Shown here: one piece after another, positions 2,573 to 11,590 of the stretch
Layout: every line of letters starts with the position of its first letter
How positions within the stretch are numbered: position 1 is the first letter of the stretch
From: a virus
Taxonomy: Duplodnaviria > Heunggongvirae > Uroviricota > Caudoviricetes
IMG/VR virus record: IMGVR_UViG_3300037420_000666
Reading direction: 5' to 3' (one strand)
DNA length: 14,365 nt
Translations under genes and position numbers: made by a program
Notes under the pieces: model-generated
What the model saw: the letters and a program-made list of their open reading frames with translations, nothing else
The model's database searches: none
Told to the model about the DNA's origin: nothing

Positions 2573-3820
2573 TTATGCGGCGAGGGCGGCAGCCCACATG
2601 TCGGGCTGCGTGGCGCCGTTCTGGTAGACGATCTCGGGCAGCACGGTGTCGGCGGTGGGCTCGTCGCCTTCCCAGCCGTCCGGCCACGTCTCGGCGGCGA
2701 TCAGCTCGCGGATGCGCGCCTCTTCCTTGGCGTTGATCAGGCTGATCTCGGGCCGGCGCAGGGCGCGCGCCGCGGCGTTGCACTCGGCCTGGATGCCCAG
2801 GACGCGCTCCAGCGCCATGGAGCGGGCCTCCAGCGTCAGCGGGCCCATGCGCTGCGGGTTCTTGGCGATCGCGCCCGACTTCAGGCGCTCGGCGCCGGCC
2901 TTCTTCAGGCGGTGCTGCGGTTCGCGCAGCTCACGCCACAGCCGCTTCAGCCCGCGCAGCGGCGCCAGGTACTGCCAGTGCGGCAGGGCCAGCACCGTCT
3001 CCAGCGCCTTCTCCTCCTGGGCCAGCGGGCAGCCGATGCAGCCTGTGCGCGCGTTGATCTCCTCGGCCTCGTCGCCGCCGTAGGCGTCCGCGATGGCGGC
3101 CGTGCTCCAGTCGCCGAACTCGGCCGCGGGCGCCCAGTGCTTCAGCCACTCCCACACGTGGCACACGCGCCAGTGCAGCAGCGGCGCGAGGGTTGCAATG
3201 CGGCCGCGCAGACCCTTCGCGTTCGGCAGCACCTGCTGGTACCAGCCTTGGCCGCACTCGGCGCCATCCTTGCTGCAGCTCATTTCGATGCGCCGGTCAC
3301 GGATGGCGCTCTCGCCCTGGCGCACGCCGGTGATCATCAGGAAGTTGCCTTGCAGCTGCAGCGCGTCCAGGCGCTGCTCCAGCGCGTGCTGCATCGGGTC
3401 GATCTTGATCTGCCGCGTGCACCACCTCAGCGTGTTGTTGTTCGGCGGCGGCACACCGCGACCCAGGATGTAGACCATAAAGCGCTTGTCCATGGGCGCA
3501 CGCACCACGTCCACCTGGATGCCGCGCTCGCGCAGCTCGTCCATGATCTGTTCGGCTGCGATGGCCAGCGGCGGCAGCTCCTGGCGCGTGTCGGCGTAGA
3601 AGATGGTCAGCGACTGCGGCGCCGCGATCTGCCCGGCGTCGATCAGCCAGCAGATCATGGTGAGCGTTGCGCTGCTGTCCTTGCCGCCTGACCAGGCAAT
3701 GCCCCAGTGCGGATGGTCCGGGCCGTAGGCCTGCAGCGACTGAATCGTGAGCTCGATGCTCTCGGTCATCTGCAGGCGCTGCGCGGTGGCGTCGAAGAAG
3801 CTGCTCTGTATGCGGCTCAT
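2573..3820 (-). CDS. PP-loop ATP-pyrophosphatase / PAPS-reductase-like protein (DndC- or phage DUF3440-like)
   Basis: Start set at ATG 3820 (MSRIQSSFFD...) with GAGGGAAGGA upstream; the longer frame starts at GTG 3889. Contains the canonical PP-loop SGGKDS (WGIAWSGGKDSSATL) and a cysteine-containing C-terminal half (TGCIGCPL). A 14-nt gap to the next gene suggests one operon. Confidence 0.8.
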   Translation of the reverse strand: MSRIQSSFFDATAQRLQMTESIELTIQSLQAYGPDHPHWGIAWSGGKDSSATLTMICWLIDAGQIAAPQSLTIFYADTRQELPPLAIAAEQIMDELRERGIQVDVVRAPMDKRFMVYILGRGVPPPNNNTLRWCTRQIKIDPMQHALEQRLDALQLQGNFLMITGVRQGESAIRDRRIEMSCSKDGAECGQGWYQQVLPNAKGLRGRIATLAPLLHWRVCHVWEWLKHWAPAAEFGDWSTAAIADAYGGDEAEEINARTGCIGCPLAQEEKALETVLALPHWQYLAPLRGLKRLWRELREPQHRLKKAGAERLKSGAIAKNPQRMGPLTLEARSMALERVLGIQAECNAAARALRRPEISLINAKEEARIRELIAAETWPDGWEGDEPTADTVLPEIVYQNGATQPDMWAAALAA

Positions 3821-5245: not shown

Positions 5246-5566
5246 TCAGTACGGAACGGCCTCGGCCTCGATGCCGGCCGGCGTCTTGCCGCACTTGCAC
5301 GCTCCGCAGCCGGCGCACTTCTCGGCCAGGGCCTGGGCGTGCGCCTCTTCGGCGGCGATCTGCGCCACGGTCTCAGCGGGCAGGCCCAGGCGCTCGGCGG
5401 CGCGCTGGATTGCGTGGTCGGTGTTGCCGTGCACCTGGCGCATGGTCTCGACGGTGCTGGCTACGGTCGCGCGGGAAACGATGGGATCGGGCATATCGGT
5501 CTCGGTTGTGGTCATGCGGTGCCGGGCGCTGGCCCGGCGGGTTTTGAACTTGGAGCGGTGGGGCAT
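5246..5566 (-). CDS. Hypothetical small Cys-rich protein
   Basis: 106-aa ORF whose ATG overlaps the stop of the upstream gene (TGATG at 5564-5568). GC-rich third codon positions through the N-terminal extension. C-terminal cluster CAGCGACKCGK may bind metal. Internal ATG at 5515 is an alternative start. Confidence 0.5.
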   Translation of the reverse strand: MPHRSKFKTRRASARHRMTTTETDMPDPIVSRATVASTVETMRQVHGNTDHAIQRAAERLGLPAETVAQIAAEEAHAQALAEKCAGCGACKCGKTPAGIEAEAVPY

Positions 5567-6783
5567 CAGGCCGGCACGGCCTTGGCGGCACCCTCGGCCT
5601 CGGCGATGGCGGCGCGGGCCTCGACCATCTCGGGCGCGTGCTCGATCAGACCCTCTTCGTCGCTGTCGGCCATCGACGTCACCAGGGCGCGCAGCGCCTT
5701 CAGCAGCCGCGGGGCCGCATCGCGCAGGCGCTTGTCGGCTGCGGCGCGGGCTTCTTCCTCGCGCTGGCGGGCCGCGGCGGCTTCACGGGCCACGCGCTGC
5801 GCCTCGGCCAGCTCGGCGGCGGCCTTGCGCTCCTCGGCTTCGCGCGCCTCCCGTGCAATGCGGTCGGCCTCGGCGCGGGCTGCGGCGGCCTGGCGCTCTT
5901 GCTCGGCGAGGGCTTCGCGCTGGCGGCGCATCTCCGCTTCGTGGGCCTCGCGCTCGGCGCGCAGCTTCGCCTCGTGCTCGGCCCGCTCCTTGTCGCGCTT
6001 CAGGGCCGCAGCGATCTCCTCGGCCTCGCGCTGCTCGCGAGCCTTGCGCTCTTCCTCGGCGCGCGCGGCGGCGGCCTCCTCGTCGCGCTTCTTCTGCTCG
6101 GCGCGCAGCTTGGCCAGCTCGGCGCGCTCCGCGGCGAGGCGGGCGGCTTCGGCTTCGCGCTCCACCGCGGCAGCGTGCATGTCGCGCAGCTGCTTCAGCG
6201 TGTCGGCCTTTGCCTCCTCGGCCTTGCCGCGGTACTCCTCGAAGTCGTCGCCGATGGCAAGCGCCTCGATGTCCGCGATGTGCTGGGCGATCTGCTCGGC
6301 GGTGCAGCGCAGGGACGCCACCACGATGGCCTCGATGTCGTTGGCGATGCGGTCCTGGTGCGCCTTCACGCGCGCCGCCTCGGCCGCGGCCTTCGCCTGC
6401 TTCTCGGCTTCCTTGCGCTGCTCCTCAGCCTTGATCTGGGCGTCGTAGTGCTCTTCGCCAGCCAGCAGCTTCGCAGTGAGCTCGCCGGCAAAGCTGTCGA
6501 TGGCCTTGCCCAGGGCGAGCACCGGGGCCTTGGCGTCCTTGCGGGCCTTCTCGACAGCCAGGCGCGGCGTGCGCCAAGCGGCTCGGGCGGCGATGGCCGA
6601 CTTCATGCCGGCGGTGGTGCTGATCTCGGCGATCAGCACGTCCTTGGGGTGCTGCTTCTCCAGCTCGGCCAGGCCCGCGGCGATCTTGTCGAAGGCGCCC
6701 ACGTGCGTTTGCACGGTGGCGATGTTGGAGGCGATGCCGGCGACAGCGGCGGCGGCGGTGGTTTCTTGAGCGACGGTTTCCAT
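5566..6783 (-). CDS. Phage protein with a long E/R/K/A-rich charged helical repeat region
   Basis: Start set at ATG 6783 (METVAQETT...); the longer frame starts at GTG 6867 with no RBS and overlaps the exonuclease gene. The central ~200 aa are a near-continuous run of A/E/R/K (for example AEAARLAAERAELAKLRAEQKKRDEEAAAARAEEERKAREQREAEE), predicted coiled coil or single alpha helix. Confidence 0.7.
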   Translation of the reverse strand: METVAQETTAAAAVAGIASNIATVQTHVGAFDKIAAGLAELEKQHPKDVLIAEISTTAGMKSAIAARAAWRTPRLAVEKARKDAKAPVLALGKAIDSFAGELTAKLLAGEEHYDAQIKAEEQRKEAEKQAKAAAEAARVKAHQDRIANDIEAIVVASLRCTAEQIAQHIADIEALAIGDDFEEYRGKAEEAKADTLKQLRDMHAAAVEREAEAARLAAERAELAKLRAEQKKRDEEAAAARAEEERKAREQREAEEIAAALKRDKERAEHEAKLRAEREAHEAEMRRQREALAEQERQAAAARAEADRIAREAREAEERKAAAELAEAQRVAREAAAARQREEEARAAADKRLRDAAPRLLKALRALVTSMADSDEEGLIEHAPEMVEARAAIAEAEGAAKAVPA

Positions 6784-6811
6784 GTCCGTTTTCTCGGTCT
6801 GAAATGAGGGG

Positions 6812-7480
6812 TCAGGCGGCCAGCGGCATCGGGCGGCGCAGGGCGGCCTCGTGCTGGTCCACCACACGGCGGAAGTCCATCAGGTCGGACTCCAGGGCTT
6901 CGATTGCGTCGTCATCGCGGCGGATGCGCTGGATGAACAGGCTCTTGCCCACCGGTTCCAGCCAGGGGCAGAACACCACTAGGTCGCACCAGGCGCGGCC
7001 GGTGATCCAGAGTCCGCCCAGGATCTGGTCGCGGTACTCGTCGGCCGCGTGGGCCGGGTCCGTCCAGATCAGGCCCAGCTTGTCGCAAGCGGCCGGGCAC
7101 TTGATCTCGACCATGCCCACATCGCCCACGAAGCCGTCCGTGCTGTAGCCGAAGGCGCCGTCGTCGGTGAAGACGATGCCGGCCTCCATGGCCAGCGAGC
7201 CGGTGTGCTGCTCGTAGGCCTCGCGCGCTGCGGGCTCCAGCTCGGTGCCGCGCTTCATGGCCCACGTGACGAAGGTGTCATCCAGCGACGTGCCGCTGAT
7301 GCGCTCCATGGCCAGGGTCCATGCGTACTTGATGGCCTCGCTGCTGGGGTCGCCCGCCTTGCGGTCGCCGCTGGCGCGCTTCAGCTTCGAGCGGGCATCA
7401 CTGAAGCGGCTGGCGGTGATCACGCCGGCGCGCGCGGCCAGCCATTCCTGCGTGCCCTGTTGGACTTGAAGGAAGCGCAT
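6812..7480 (-). CDS. YqaJ-like viral recombinase-associated exonuclease (lambda Exo functional analogue)
   Basis: N-terminal QQGTQEWLAARAGVITASRFSDA is the hallmark YqaJ/PD-(D/E)XK exonuclease opening. ATG at 7480 lies 4 nt after the RecT stop, the classic RecT-exonuclease pair. Confidence 0.9.
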   Translation of the reverse strand: MRFLQVQQGTQEWLAARAGVITASRFSDARSKLKRASGDRKAGDPSSEAIKYAWTLAMERISGTSLDDTFVTWAMKRGTELEPAAREAYEQHTGSLAMEAGIVFTDDGAFGYSTDGFVGDVGMVEIKCPAACDKLGLIWTDPAHAADEYRDQILGGLWITGRAWCDLVVFCPWLEPVGKSLFIQRIRRDDDAIEALESDLMDFRRVVDQHEAALRRPMPLAA

Positions 7481-7483
7481 GGC

Positions 7484-8491
7484 TCAGGCCTCCAGCGCTT
7501 CGCCGCGCACCGCGATCAGCTTCTCCAGCCGCGTGCGCTCCTCGCCCTCGGGCAGCGTGGCCACGTCGTCGCCGATGAGCAACAACACCTGGGCGTCGCT
7601 GCAGCTGCCGATGCGCTGCTCCAACGCCACCACGTCCAGGCCCGGGGCAGCATCGGCGGCCGGCATGTCCACGGTGCGCGCAGCGTCGGCGTCGATCGCG
7701 GCTTGCTTCAGGCGCGGGTGGTGCTCGGCGAGGTGCTTGCGGTTGGCCGGGCCGGTGGACTTCCAGAATTCCTGGTACGCGGCCACGCCCTCGGCGGCGG
7801 CGTTCTCGGCGGCCTCCAGCAGGCCGGCGGGCATCTGCGGTGCTTCGGGCGCCTGCGGCTGCACGGTGTTGGCCGGGCCCATGTTCTTGGGTGGCGCGAT
7901 CTGCTCCAGCTCGTCGGGCGTGTAGATGCCCAGGATGGCGCCAGGCGTGTAGAGGCGGGCCCAGTTCTTGGCCTGCAGATATCCAAGCTGCTGTTTCGGG
8001 TTCGTCTTCCACAGCGGCGAATTCCTGGTCGTGACCGACTTCATGCACAGCCACTCGCCCCAGGTGATCTCCTGCTCGCCACGCAGCACCGCGCCCGCGC
8101 GGCACTCGACGGCTTCGCCGGTGCCCTTGAACTCGTACTTGAACGTGCCGTGGATCGCGCCGCTGGCCTGCACCACCGCGATGACCAGTTGCGCCTCGTA
8201 GCCCAGCGTGCCGTTGACCACGTGCGTCTTCTGGGCCACGGCGTAGGGGTTCATGCGCCACTGCGCGGCCTGCATCGCCACCGCCAGGCAGTCGCCCGTC
8301 TTGCCCTGCAGGTGCTTGGGCACGGTGATGGTGGCCTTGGCCATCTCCTGGGCCACCACGGCCAGGGCGTTCATGGTGGTGGCGTCCATCAGCAGGTCCA
8401 GCGCGCCAACGCGCGTCGGGCCTGCGGCCATGGCGGGCTGCTGCTCGATGGGGGCGGCCAGGGCCAGCGGTTGTTCGGTCATCGTGTTCAT
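7484..8491 (-). CDS. recT: RecT-family single-strand annealing protein
   Basis: 335-aa ORF. Motifs VPKHLQGKTGDCLAVAMQAAQWRMNPY...THVVNGTLGYEAQL...ECRAGAVLRGEQEITWGEWLCMKS fit the RecT/Red-beta family. ATG at 8491 preceded by GAGGA. Immediately upstream of the YqaJ exonuclease. Confidence 0.9.
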   Translation of the reverse strand: MNTMTEQPLALAAPIEQQPAMAAGPTRVGALDLLMDATTMNALAVVAQEMAKATITVPKHLQGKTGDCLAVAMQAAQWRMNPYAVAQKTHVVNGTLGYEAQLVIAVVQASGAIHGTFKYEFKGTGEAVECRAGAVLRGEQEITWGEWLCMKSVTTRNSPLWKTNPKQQLGYLQAKNWARLYTPGAILGIYTPDELEQIAPPKNMGPANTVQPQAPEAPQMPAGLLEAAENAAAEGVAAYQEFWKSTGPANRKHLAEHHPRLKQAAIDADAARTVDMPAADAAPGLDVVALEQRIGSCSDAQVLLLIGDDVATLPEGEERTRLEKLIAVRGEALEA

Positions 8492-8503
8492 GTGGTCCTC
8501 GGG

Positions 8504-8656
8504 TCAGTGAGAGAGGGCGCGCACCGCAGCGCGCAATGCGGTGAAGGGGCGGGCCCCGATGGCGCGCCAGGCGGTCCAGCAGGCGGCCACGCGGCGGCCG
8601 GCGCCGGGGATCTGGATGTGCGCCGTGGCGGCGCGGGAGGCGGTTGCTGCGTCCAC
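8504..8656 (-). CDS. Possible small ORF (about 50 aa), uncertain
   Basis: Fills the 167-bp gap between the zinc-finger gene stop (8659-8661) and the RecT start. Would start at GTG 8656, 2 nt after that stop. Product is low complexity (A/R-rich) and may be an artefact of GC-rich sequence. Confidence 0.2.
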   Translation of the reverse strand: MDAATASRAATAHIQIPGAGRRVAACWTAWRAIGARPFTALRAAVRALSH

Positions 8657-8658
8657 GG

Positions 8659-9135
8659 TCAGGCTCCCTTGCAGAAGTCGATGAGGGCGCGCACGCCGCG
8701 GCGGCGCTGGGTGGTGCCTCGCACGATCCAAAGGCCGGTGCCGGGCCAGAAGTCCACAAGCTGCTTCTGTCCGGCTCGCACAACCAGGTGCGCGCCGTCG
8801 TTCTTGCTTGTGAACTGGATGCCTTGCTCGGCCAGCATCTGCGCGCCCTCGGCGCGGTTGTTGGCGCGGCGCTGCTGGTCGGCCTGGATGTCGCCTTTCA
8901 CGGCGCGCCAGAAGTCGCCTACCGTTTCGCCGTCGTCATCGTCGCGCGGGCTCTTGGGAGGCTTGATGCCGTGCGCGTCCTTGCGGTGCTGGCTCAACTG
9001 CTCCGGCTGCGCAAAGCGGCGCGTGCACTTGTCGCAAGCGTGCGGCTTCTCTTGCTTGGCCGGCTGCTGGGTGGCGGCCTTGACCTTGCGGCGGTGCGCG
9101 TCGCGCTCGCGCCAGATGTCTCCGATGTCTCCCAT
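8659..9135 (-). CDS. Phage protein with a classical C2H2-type zinc finger
   Basis: Start set at ATG 9135 (MGDIGDIWRERDAH...) with GGAG upstream; the longer frame begins at TTG 9180. Contains CDKC-x12-H-x4-H (HACDKCTRRFAQPEQLSQHRKDAHG), which is C-x2-C-x12-H-x4-H spacing. The C-terminal half (GAHLVVRAGQKQLVDFWPGTGLWIVRG) was not recognised. Confidence 0.7.
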   Translation of the reverse strand: MGDIGDIWRERDAHRRKVKAATQQPAKQEKPHACDKCTRRFAQPEQLSQHRKDAHGIKPPKSPRDDDDGETVGDFWRAVKGDIQADQQRRANNRAEGAQMLAEQGIQFTSKNDGAHLVVRAGQKQLVDFWPGTGLWIVRGTTQRRRGVRALIDFCKGA

Positions 9136-9136
9136 G

Positions 9137-9229
9137 TCAGGCTCCAACGAGGACGCGGAACGCGTAGCCCGCGAGCGCAATCAGCGCCGTGCCGGCCATC
9201 ACGATCAGCTCGGGTGCGATGCGGTTCAT
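9137..9229 (-). CDS. Putative 30-aa hydrophobic micro-protein
   Basis: MNRIAPELIVMAGTALIALAGYAFRVLVGA, a single predicted transmembrane helix. Its ATG shares ATGA with the upstream stop (9226-9229) and its stop lies 1 nt before the next start (9135). The longer 87-aa frame has an implausible N-terminus overlapping neighbours. Confidence 0.4.
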   Translation of the reverse strand: MNRIAPELIVMAGTALIALAGYAFRVLVGA

Positions 9230-9363
9230 GCGGCACCCCGGCGCAGCTTCTTCAGCTGCTCGATGTCGGCACGGATCAGGGCGCGCGTGGCGGCCTTCAC
9301 TTCGGCGCAGTTCCGGCGCGGCAGAAGGATCTGCAGCGCGCGCTCGATGACTGCGGCGCTCAT
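9226..9363 (-). CDS. Hypothetical 45-aa protein
   Basis: Internal ATG 9363 (MSAAVIERALQILLPRRNCAEVKAATRALIRADIEQLKKLRRGAA) with GAGG upstream. Start lies adjacent to the upstream gene's stop codon (9360-9362) and its stop overlaps the next start. Likely helical. Confidence 0.45.
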   Translation of the reverse strand: MSAAVIERALQILLPRRNCAEVKAATRALIRADIEQLKKLRRGAA

Positions 9364-9866
9364 GCCGCGAGCCTCGACTGGTAGGCGTCGATCGCCGCAT
9401 CCGTCTTGGCCGCCTCGCACTCCAGGCGGTAGTCGCGCTCGCACGCGGCTTGCCACAGCTCGGCCGTCCTCGTGTCGATCAGGTCGGCGTCCAGGCCGTT
9501 CACGCGCTCCAGGATCACCAGCGGGCTCACGCGGCCGCTGGGGTCCTCGTCGGTCTCAATGCGGTACTGCAGCAGCACCGGGCGAATGCCGGCCTGCATG
9601 GTGCAGGTGTAGACGCCGCGCTCTTTGGAGGCGCCCAGGTACTGCTCCAGGTTGCTGATCTCGCGACACAGCGCGTGCACGTGGCCACGCAGGTTGCTCG
9701 CCTCGATGCGCGAGGCGCACAGCTCGCGGCGCAGCAGGCGCTCGGCGTCGGTGCGGCTCGTGAGGTCGTCGCCGTTCTCGGCGGCGCGGGCCTCGCCGAG
9801 CTGGGCGCACGTCGCGGCGATGCGCTCGGCGCGGTCCTGGGGGCGGGTGGTGGCGATGGCGGCCAT
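9360..9866 (-). CDS. Hypothetical phage early protein
   Basis: 168 aa from ATG 9866 (the track's first M at 9869 is GTG). Start overlaps the upstream stop (TGATG). No family recognised. Confidence 0.65.
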   Translation of the reverse strand: MAAIATTRPQDRAERIAATCAQLGEARAAENGDDLTSRTDAERLLRRELCASRIEASNLRGHVHALCREISNLEQYLGASKERGVYTCTMQAGIRPVLLQYRIETDEDPSGRVSPLVILERVNGLDADLIDTRTAELWQAACERDYRLECEAAKTDAAIDAYQSRLAA

Positions 9867-11059: not shown

Positions 11060-11590
11060 TTAGTTTCGTCCGATCCAGCGGATACCAAGCCAGGCCAAGC
11101 CCGAAAGCAATGGAAGCGACAAGTTCAGGGCCAGGAACCCGTTCTCGGTAAGGTTGTAGTCCCATCTCCAGATGACACCCCAGAGCTGCACAGCAACTAC
11201 CCACAGAATGCTGGCAACAATCCAGGCGCGTGTCCGTCGCCTGCACTGCTCGCGGATCGCCTTCAAGCGCACTTCTGGCTTGGCAGCCTCAAGCACCGAC
11301 AGCAGCTTGGCGTGCCCGCCTCCATCTGCATATCGAAGGTAAGCGTCGTACTTCTTGCGCCGCTCCGGGTCTCCGAGGGTGTGCAAGGCCTGCTGAGTGA
11401 GCGCATACCGGGCGGGCGCGTCCTTGCTGCCACAGCCCGTTTTTGGGTGGTAAGTGGCGCTGAAAAAGCTGTGCGCCATTTCTATGTAGTCTTGCGTGGC
11501 ATTCGGCTGTAAATCAAGAACTCGATAGAAATCAACGATTCCATCTGCCCTTTTGAACTCGTCTAATACACGCTGCGCATCCTCGTCCAT
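11060..11590 (-). CDS. Membrane-anchored J-domain (DnaJ-like) protein with HPK in place of HPD
   Basis: 176 aa. Residues about 20-85 align along the whole J-domain pattern (DFYRVLDLQPNATQDYIEMAHSFFSATYHPKTG...ALHTLGDPERRKKYDAYL versus DnaJ DYYEILGV...YHPDRN...AYEVLTDSQKRAAYDQYG). The tripeptide is HPK (codons CAC CCA AAA, top 11441-11449). Two C-terminal hydrophobic segments (AWIVASILWVVAVQLWGVIW, FLALNLSLPLLSGLAWLGIRWI). Lower GC than the flanks; in the repressor-cargo region. Confidence 0.75.
   Translation of the reverse strand: MDEDAQRVLDEFKRADGIVDFYRVLDLQPNATQDYIEMAHSFFSATYHPKTGCGSKDAPARYALTQQALHTLGDPERRKKYDAYLRYADGGGHAKLLSVLEAAKPEVRLKAIREQCRRRTRAWIVASILWVVAVQLWGVIWRWDYNLTENGFLALNLSLPLLSGLAWLGIRWIGRN

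Follow-up and report, generated by a model that had tools for sequence, protein, structure and literature searches.

The locus described here raises the question of whether a zinc finger of the eukaryotic type can be genuine in an early protein of a bacteriophage, and what it may be doing there. The gene concerned is the minus-strand open reading frame (ORF) at 8659..9135 (stop codon included; 158 amino acids, aa) of the Caudoviricetes record IMGVR_UViG_3300037420_000666, the whole stretch of 14,365 nucleotides (nt) that was analysed being called the window below. As judged from the translation, its product—the finger protein—consists of a basic N-terminal helix, a C2H2 finger, an acidic linker and a conserved C-terminal domain, designated here the WPGTG domain. 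Classical fingers have been described as hardly ever found in bacteria and as rare in archaea and archaeal viruses (PMC3541406), and a 2025 preprint describes canonical C2H2 fingers as 'nearly absent in bacteria' (bioRxiv 10.1101/2025.07.27.667033). The statement of an earlier reading made from the DNA letters alone (hereafter the sequence-only reading), that such fingers are uncommon in bacteria and phages, agrees with both these sources and with a tblastn search in which the finger segment, compared with 50,697 phage records, gave nothing better than E 0.6. Fingers of the C2H2 kind are not unknown in phages, at least one uncultured Caudovirales protein being labelled in UniProt as containing a C2H2-type finger.

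The finger covers aa 32-55 (8971..9042, minus strand) and is assigned to the classical type by its spacing, hydrophobic core, profile match and predicted model. Its sequence, EKPHA-C34-DK-C37-TRRFAQPEQLSQ-H50-RKDA-H55-GIKPP, exhibits the spacing C-x2-C-x12-H-x4-H and a net charge of +4, the codons of the four putative ligands lying at 9034-9036 (C34), 9025-9027 (C37), 8986-8988 (H50) and 8971-8973 (H55). The classical core positions are occupied by F41, four residues after C37, and L47, three residues before H50; on translation of the ORF, both the spacing and the placing of Phe and Leu are exactly as the sequence-only reading had described them. In 2,000,000 shuffles of the protein's own sequence, the bare spacing C-x2-4-C-x12-H-x3-5-H arose with a frequency of 2.4e-4, and the spacing together with both hydrophobic positions with a frequency of 8.5e-6; the motif is excluded as an effect of chance or composition. 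It should be noted that the aromatic residue two positions before the first Cys is replaced by His32 in the finger protein and in its relative P0001 (89% identical), the same position being taken by Phe in P0055 (KPFVC), P0277, P0280, P0288 and P0289 (PKFKC), and by Leu in P0164 (NLKC).

Concerning the family to which the finger belongs, the best one in Pfam was zf-C2H2 (PF00096), aa 32-55 aligning with the whole 23-position model at 19.1 bits (E 0.0017); the profile check proposed by the sequence-only reading is thus borne out as to the family, whereas the score stays below the gathering threshold of 25.2 bits. A phmmer search of aa 26-63 against all sequences of the PDB gave 252 matches, the 60 listed being all eukaryotic-type C2H2 fingers; the E-values of multi-finger proteins are inflated there by repeat summation, the single-finger nuclear magnetic resonance constructs 2em3_A and 2yrj_A having E ~2e-4. 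The Pfam family ROS_MUCR (PF05443) was not matched even at E<=10, the spacer counting 12 residues and not 9. As far as prediction goes, the finger is therefore of the eukaryotic type and not of the Ros/MucR type, as had been claimed. Moreover, EKPHxC ahead of the finger and H..G-I-K-P behind it are in the register of the canonical TGEKP linker, and linker-like flanks are found in relatives as well (HGVKPP in P0063, GIKPP in P0008 and YKPFVC in P0055).

The AlphaFold2 model of the finger contains strands at 32-33 and 39-40 and a helix at 44-55, with a predicted local distance difference test score (pLDDT) of ~88, and a second AlphaFold model, prepared for the most divergent fingered relative (P0277), is also of the beta-beta-alpha kind (pLDDT 88-97), which is what the sequence-only reading had proposed to look for. 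Foldseek gave no significant match in the PDB for the finger protein, its best short local matches being classical fingers—ZBTB24 with 27 columns at 1.7 A and SALL3 with 30 columns at 2.3 A. All in all, aa 32-55 very probably form a genuine zinc-binding beta-beta-alpha unit.

The finger, presented in the sequence-only reading as the defining feature of the protein, turned out to be an optional addition. A Cys2His2 unit occurs in 8 of the ~150 listed representatives of the family (~5%), and the fingered clusters, at least 12 after an additional search, belong to ~7 lineages. The finger is N-terminal in the finger protein/P0001, P0008, P0051, P0053, P0055, P0063, P0164, P0277, P0280, P0288 and P0289, and C-terminal in P0124 only, the homologues mostly lacking the whole finger segment. 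Where the finger extension is present, the ligands are kept, so that the Cys/His conservation asked about earlier is indeed found: in the alignment of eight N-terminal fingered relatives, C34 and H50 are invariant, C37 aligns in seven of the eight, and the distal His stands at x4 in five and at x7 in three. What the fingers have in common is C-x-x-C-G-[RK]-R-[FV] with the His ligands, not the base-reading positions of the helix. When the domain cores alone are compared, the fingered proteins form ~7 groups, each having its nearest relatives among finger-less proteins (59-67% identity) and sharing 42-60% identity with the other fingered groups; this points to repeated gain or loss of the finger. 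As background, the 1,456 ORFs neighbouring the domain gene yielded three loose Cys2His2 spacings and none with the hydrophobic signature, and among the same ORFs no separate finger gene in a split 'Rosetta-stone' arrangement was present beside the finger-less domains. Going by the sequences, it is the C-terminal domain that is the conserved core and the finger that is the rare addition, because most members of the family are stand-alone domains of ~90 aa with no finger.

The finger is one of several modules found together with the domain. P0063 contains a Zn-ribbon in addition to the finger, P0101 carries a full RNase H after the domain (PF00075, E 1.5e-40), P0134 is a tandem duplication of the domain, and Cys-rich C-terminal tails of the type CxxC...CxxC are present in P0149 and in the ORF 4404-4886 of contig L050. 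Two further N-terminal extensions were judged by eye only, that of P0097 being winged-helix-like, with no family match, and that of P0303 KOW/SH3-like. The order domain-linker-RNase H in P0101 is one that we take to resemble the hybrid-binding domain and the catalytic domain of RNase H1 enzymes. A candidate fusion of this kind in a cultured phage, suggested by a structural match to the RNaseH of Caulobacter phage Sansa (E 0.027), was rejected, since neither the full fusion protein nor its domain part retrieved it by sequence. A word-indexed search for Pfam fusion partners gave entries without domains only.

The C-terminal domain itself covers aa 73-158 (8662..8919, minus strand) and is predicted to consist of a long helix, a five-stranded antiparallel sheet and a C-terminal helix (pLDDT 94-98). 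The last 70 aa had been left by the sequence-only reading as an unrecognised tail; the ~86 aa found there are the conserved core, shared by more than 1,700 clusters. The family is characterised by N-x-G-A-H-L and D-F-W-P-G-T-G-L-W, all the invariant residues being present in the finger protein; the latter motif, D128-F-W-P-G-T-G-L-W136 (8728..8754, minus strand), forms the predicted hairpin turn between strands 3 and 4 and is invariant in the first alignment (A1), G114, H116, W130, P131, T133 and G134 remaining invariant even in a deliberately diverse set (A4). All but two of the 34 first-round homologues measured 87-113 aa, their alignment being limited to aa ~73-158. When 1.84 billion representatives were searched with a profile, 1,733 of them were collected at E<=1e-3 and 968 at E<=1e-10, the majority of the 1,733 being stand-alone proteins of ~90 aa. 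Every one of the 311 domain members retrieved has a net positive charge (median +6; median isoelectric point, pI, 10.3).

No match to the domain was obtained in Pfam, NCBIfam or PADLOC, nor any relative by sequence in the PDB, and its matches in BFVD are uncharacterised phage proteins only. PHROG 27571, a group of unknown function, is matched by aa 77-156 (E 1.6e-6), and no mention of the WPGTG motif was found in the searchable literature. A relation of aa 93-120 to DUF4224 (PF13986) was rejected, with 13.9 bits vs a cut-off of 22, an hhalign probability of 0.45% vs a bona fide member, and a weak match in only 3 of 40 diverse family members. Stand-alone domain proteins include PS1_16 of Pseudomonas phage PS-1, ORF17 of Pasteurella phage Pm86, a protein of Thalassomonas phage BA3 and gp39 of EBPR podovirus 3, which are 32-54% identical to aa 73-158 (tblastn), and share with it the invariant motif, the early-operon site and the vicinity of Bet/Exo; they differ in lacking both the finger and the basic N-terminal helix, all of them being annotated as 'hypothetical protein'. 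Apparent full-length relatives in the isolates L015, L016, L017 and L046 (around 6001-6453) were discarded, their '8-157' matches being composed of tblastn pieces from different frames; the true genes there are stand-alone domains. An unrelated basic ORF of 85 aa upstream of these genes mimics the N-terminal helix of the finger protein. Beta- and Gammaproteobacteria account for most of the hosts, and outliers occur in a phage of Microcystis and one of Enterococcus (PP438425.1, PQ571292.1). The domain was also seen on contigs binned to a Thermoplasmatales archaeon metagenome-assembled genome (MAG; L032) and to a Synechococcus MAG (L018), which would mean either that hosts extend beyond the Proteobacteria or that part of the contigs have been mis-binned.

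With regard to the genomic setting, the gene in the annotated phages (PS-1 and Pm86) and on long contigs is always part of an early operon on one strand, with the immunity region on one side and the integrase on the other. Within 2.5 kb of the gene in 95 non-identical loci, the most frequent neighbours were a YqaJ exonuclease and a single-strand-binding protein (15 each), followed by a DNA cytosine methylase (11) and by proteins of the RecT/Bet type (8 and 7). No neighbour is fixed among the relatives, so that the link with RecT is regional and not specific.

Starting from what has been shown, namely a conserved motif, the folds as predicted, the fusions of modules, the charge and the position in the genome, it is proposed that the finger protein is a basic early protein whose WPGTG domain would bind nucleic acid in recombination or replication, with the finger as an accessory and largely non-specific clamp, a proposal that may well be correct but may equally well fail. 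The core would be the C-terminal alpha/beta WPGTG domain, binding DNA or intermediates such as single-stranded DNA or RNA:DNA hybrids during early development. In front of it, one Krüppel-type finger would have been added, with a basic helix ahead and a flexible acidic linker behind; it would bind one Zn(II) through C34, C37, H50 and H55, and would serve to raise the affinity or to shift the substrate preference, mostly without sequence specificity. Such an accessory role would be analogous to that of the single-finger proteins that need basic extensions, i.e. GAGA and AFV1p06, and possibly also to that of the binding domain ahead of some RNase H enzymes. That the protein binds zinc and nucleic acid, and that it acts in recombination or replication at all, is inferred. 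Nucleic-acid binding is favoured because all 311 members are basic, because the add-ons are of the Zn-ribbon, winged-helix-like and RNase H kinds, and because of the DNA-metabolism neighbours and the early-operon site. As for the roles suggested by the sequence-only reading (regulator, recombination, anti-defence), the balance tips towards a general binding of nucleic acid rather than towards sequence-specific regulation.

Several points weigh against this proposal. The score of 19.1 bits, falling short of 25.2, leaves the finger outside the curated zf-C2H2 membership, and AlphaFold, having been trained on thousands of C2H2 fingers, folds the motif regardless, so that the model is not independent of the motif. 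The fusion with RNase H is confined to one cluster, and the clustering of the 1,456 neighbouring ORFs from the 95 loci revealed no partner gene in more than 16% of the loci. Finally, the changes counted against P0001, which speak for a genuine finger—3 synonymous and 1 non-synonymous in the finger segment, 3 synonymous and 9 non-synonymous in the linker—are very few, the differences numbering 27 in all, and are suggestive only.

The alternative that survives best, although it is considered rather unlikely, is a function in host takeover or anti-defence, the WPGTG domain inhibiting or redirecting a host protein (e.g. RecBCD, like lambda Gam) and the finger serving as a module for protein interaction or localisation. 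The finger gene lies directly upstream of an annealase/exonuclease pair, where lambda has gam at the equivalent map position; moreover, it is a small, non-essential-looking early gene with a patchy distribution in the mosaic early regions of many temperate phages, and the strictly invariant motif of surface type (W-P-G-T-G, G-x-H) might serve as an epitope for protein binding. The recombinase is, however, adjacent in a minority of the loci only, the protein is strongly basic, unlike DNA-mimic inhibitors, and the fusion with RNase H and the modules of the nucleic-acid type suit substrate binding better. There is also no match to Gam in either PADLOC or Pfam: the PADLOC defence and anti-defence profiles gave 0 families at E<=10 for the finger protein, and a Gam-type RecBCD inhibitor was rejected as a candidate, with no Gam family among the Pfam matches at E<=10 and with a protein that is basic and a domain that is alpha/beta, Gam being an acidic helical dimer.

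It is improbable that the protein is a sequence-specific regulator of early or lysogeny genes, in which the finger and the basic helix would read a site, as in GAGA, Ros/MucR or AFV1p06, the C-terminal domain being responsible for oligomerisation. A classical finger with a basic N-terminal extension would suit this role, single fingers with basic extensions being able to bind DNA specifically (PMC3541406), and the winged-helix-like look of the N-terminal segment in P0097—seen by eye, with no family match—points the same way. Against this, ~95% of the family have neither a finger nor anything else recognisable as a module for reading DNA; conservation resides in the C-terminal domain, the invariant W-P-G-T-G hairpin of which would be odd for mere oligomerisation; the helix positions -1, 2, 3 and 6 are not conserved among the fingered members, P0051 being Gly-rich there; and the gene is found deep in the operon, away from the immunity region.

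Still harder to defend is a small enzyme, i.e. the WPGTG domain acting as a nuclease or a nucleotide-modifying enzyme via the invariant H116, D128 and N112, with the finger holding the substrate. A scaffold would less typically show the invariant G-x-H, N and D along with the W-P-G-T-G loop than would a catalytic or ligand-binding site, and the neighbours are genes of DNA metabolism; on the other hand, no likeness in fold or profile to known catalytic domains was found, 86 aa is small for an enzyme, and in P0101 the domain, fused to an enzyme, sits where a non-catalytic binding domain is usual. That the Cys/His pattern is incidental, the N-terminal 70 aa being a disordered or helical extension that binds no zinc, is hardly credible: the sub-threshold Pfam score, the His in place of the first conserved aromatic residue and the many relatives that manage without the finger region would fit it, yet they are countered by the shuffle frequency of 8.5e-6, by the ligands kept across ~7 divergent lineages against 0 full-signature motifs in the 1,456 neighbouring ORFs, and by the significant similarity to genuine fingers.

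The closest known systems include the fingers of the Krüppel/TFIIIA type (PF00096; ZNF568, ZBTB24, Zif268), with which the phage finger shares C-x2-C-x12-H, the Phe at C2+4, the Leu at H1-3, the predicted fold, a basic residue after the second Cys and the flanks in the TGEKP register. Unlike the Krüppel arrays, however, it is a single finger, has H-x4-H instead of the common H-x3-H and His instead of Tyr/Phe before the first Cys, and is encoded by a phage of Proteobacteria as part of a fusion with a phage-specific domain. The Drosophila GAGA factor and AFV1p06, the latter being the one characterised single-finger DNA binder of viral origin, also possess one classical finger relying on basic flanks (PMC3541406), and AFV1p06, from an archaeal virus, is likewise a small protein; the similarity does not extend beyond the finger, neither has a WPGTG domain, and AFV1p06 is without the second His. 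The Ros/MucR proteins (PF05443) represent Cys2His2 zinc coordination in the bacterial world, with basic flanks aiding DNA binding, but they differ in the 9-residue spacer (C-x2-C-x9-H-x3-4-H) and in the 58-aa globular domain of a different fold (PMC9779718); they are alphaproteobacterial chromosomal regulators, whereas the finger protein is a phage early protein. The zinc proteins of the lambda exo-xis region, Ea8.5 (PDB 2M7A) and Orf73/TraR, are similar in being small, non-essential and encoded in the early-left operon near the recombination genes (PMC8614690); the fold of Ea8.5 is a homeodomain/zinc-finger hybrid, while Orf73 binds RNA polymerase through a C4 site, with no match to the finger protein in sequence or fold.

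The origin of C2H2 fingers is debated, Ros/MucR having been proposed as the ancestor. It is a tempting but doubtful idea that Krüppel-type fingers, TGEKP-like flanks included, travel as mobile modules among the temperate phages infecting Proteobacteria and have become fused more than once to a new nucleic-acid-binding domain—the WPGTG domain—of early recombination or replication. If this were true, it would mean either a transfer of fingers from eukaryotes to phages or a viral/prokaryotic reservoir of classical fingers distinct from Ros/MucR, and the WPGTG domain would define a new DNA/RNA-binding fold. A phage-borne finger gained several times by one family, and Krüppel-like down to its linker residues, would offer a case for studying the movement of fingers and the contribution of a single one. 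The larger lead is, however, the domain itself, which occurs in far more than a thousand lineages of phages and prophages, is located among recombination genes, and lacks annotation, structure and literature; knowing its activity would give a name to a frequent 'hypothetical protein' in the early regions of temperate phages and could be of use for the recombineering systems that rely on RecT/exonuclease modules.

As far as the remaining parts of the finger protein are concerned, the full-length product has a net charge of +9 and a pI of 9.9 and contains only 3 Cys and 5 His. The N-terminal basic helix (aa 4-22, DIGDIWRERDAHRRKVKAA; 9070..9126, minus strand), predicted by AlphaFold2 with pLDDT 76-85, repeats the N-terminus typical of the family, the net charge of aa 1-27 being +3. 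Its motif GD(I/F)WR recurs at aa 73-77, the starting point of the stand-alone relatives. In detail, the N-terminus MGDIGDIW (aa 1-8, 9112-9135) echoes the family start MGDMGDFW, as does VGDFWR at aa 72-77 (8905-8922), and it looks, from the sequence, as if the finger segment had been inserted behind a duplicated N-terminal helix. The linker (aa 56-72; 8920..8970, minus strand) begins with the TGEKP-like GIKPP and continues with the acidic PRDDDDGE, aa 63-72 having a net charge of -4; being acidic and of low confidence (pLDDT 54-74), it sets the basic N-terminal helix and the finger apart from the C-terminal domain.

The gene opens with ATG, and independent gene callers make the same call, an identical 158-aa gene being called on four metagenomic contigs, one of these being a phage contig of 45 kb that carries terminase, DnaB, lysis genes and an integrase. 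The alternative TTG start at 9180, giving a longer product, is unlikely because it would overlap with the upstream ORF and because the ATG is used both in P0001 and by the JGI/Logan gene callers. The upstream ORF is small (9137..9229, minus strand) and its stop lies 1 nt ahead of the ATG (TGA-C-ATG at 9133-9139), a 30-aa gene being called at its position in the loci L003-L006; as suggested by this arrangement, the two are likely to be translationally coupled. A scan of 8300-9500 for promoters and terminators gave no signal above background. With the upstream stop 1 base from the ATG and with no promoter or terminator nearby, the finger gene is therefore an internal member of an operon.

The next large gene downstream encodes the RecT single-strand annealing protein (7484..8491, minus strand; PF03837, E 2.1e-23), followed by a YqaJ-type exonuclease (6812..7480, minus strand; PF09588, E 8.6e-17). 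All three genes share a strand, and 167 nt separate the finger gene from RecT. The window represents the early-left arm of a temperate phage, in which the finger gene lies downstream of a cI-like repressor and a divergent Cro-like gene; the earlier description of its product as an early protein encoded upstream of RecT is therefore correct. The order on the minus strand starts with this repressor, composed of a helix-turn-helix and an S24 peptidase, and continues, by way of a J-domain protein and several small ORFs that match no family, to the finger gene; after it come RecT, the YqaJ exonuclease, more unknown ORFs, a PAPS-reductase-like protein and the integrase. A Cro-like gene is located on the plus strand, divergent from the cI-like repressor.

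Some minor observations were made along this arm. The gap between the finger gene and RecT contains an ORF of 50 aa (8504-8656, minus strand), which is called as a gene on the related contigs L004 and L127 but not on others. The J-domain protein (11060-11590, minus strand; PF00226, E 1.6e-10) has two hydrophobic C-terminal segments that are probably membrane-spanning, so it could be a membrane-anchored phage co-chaperone. Directly after the YqaJ gene, there is an Ala/Glu/Arg-rich, coiled-coil-looking ORF of 405-433 aa (5566-6867, minus strand), which has no match in Pfam and is called as a gene on related contigs. The PAPS-reductase-like protein (2573-3820, minus strand; PF01507, E 6.5e-9) is encoded between the recombination module and the integrase.

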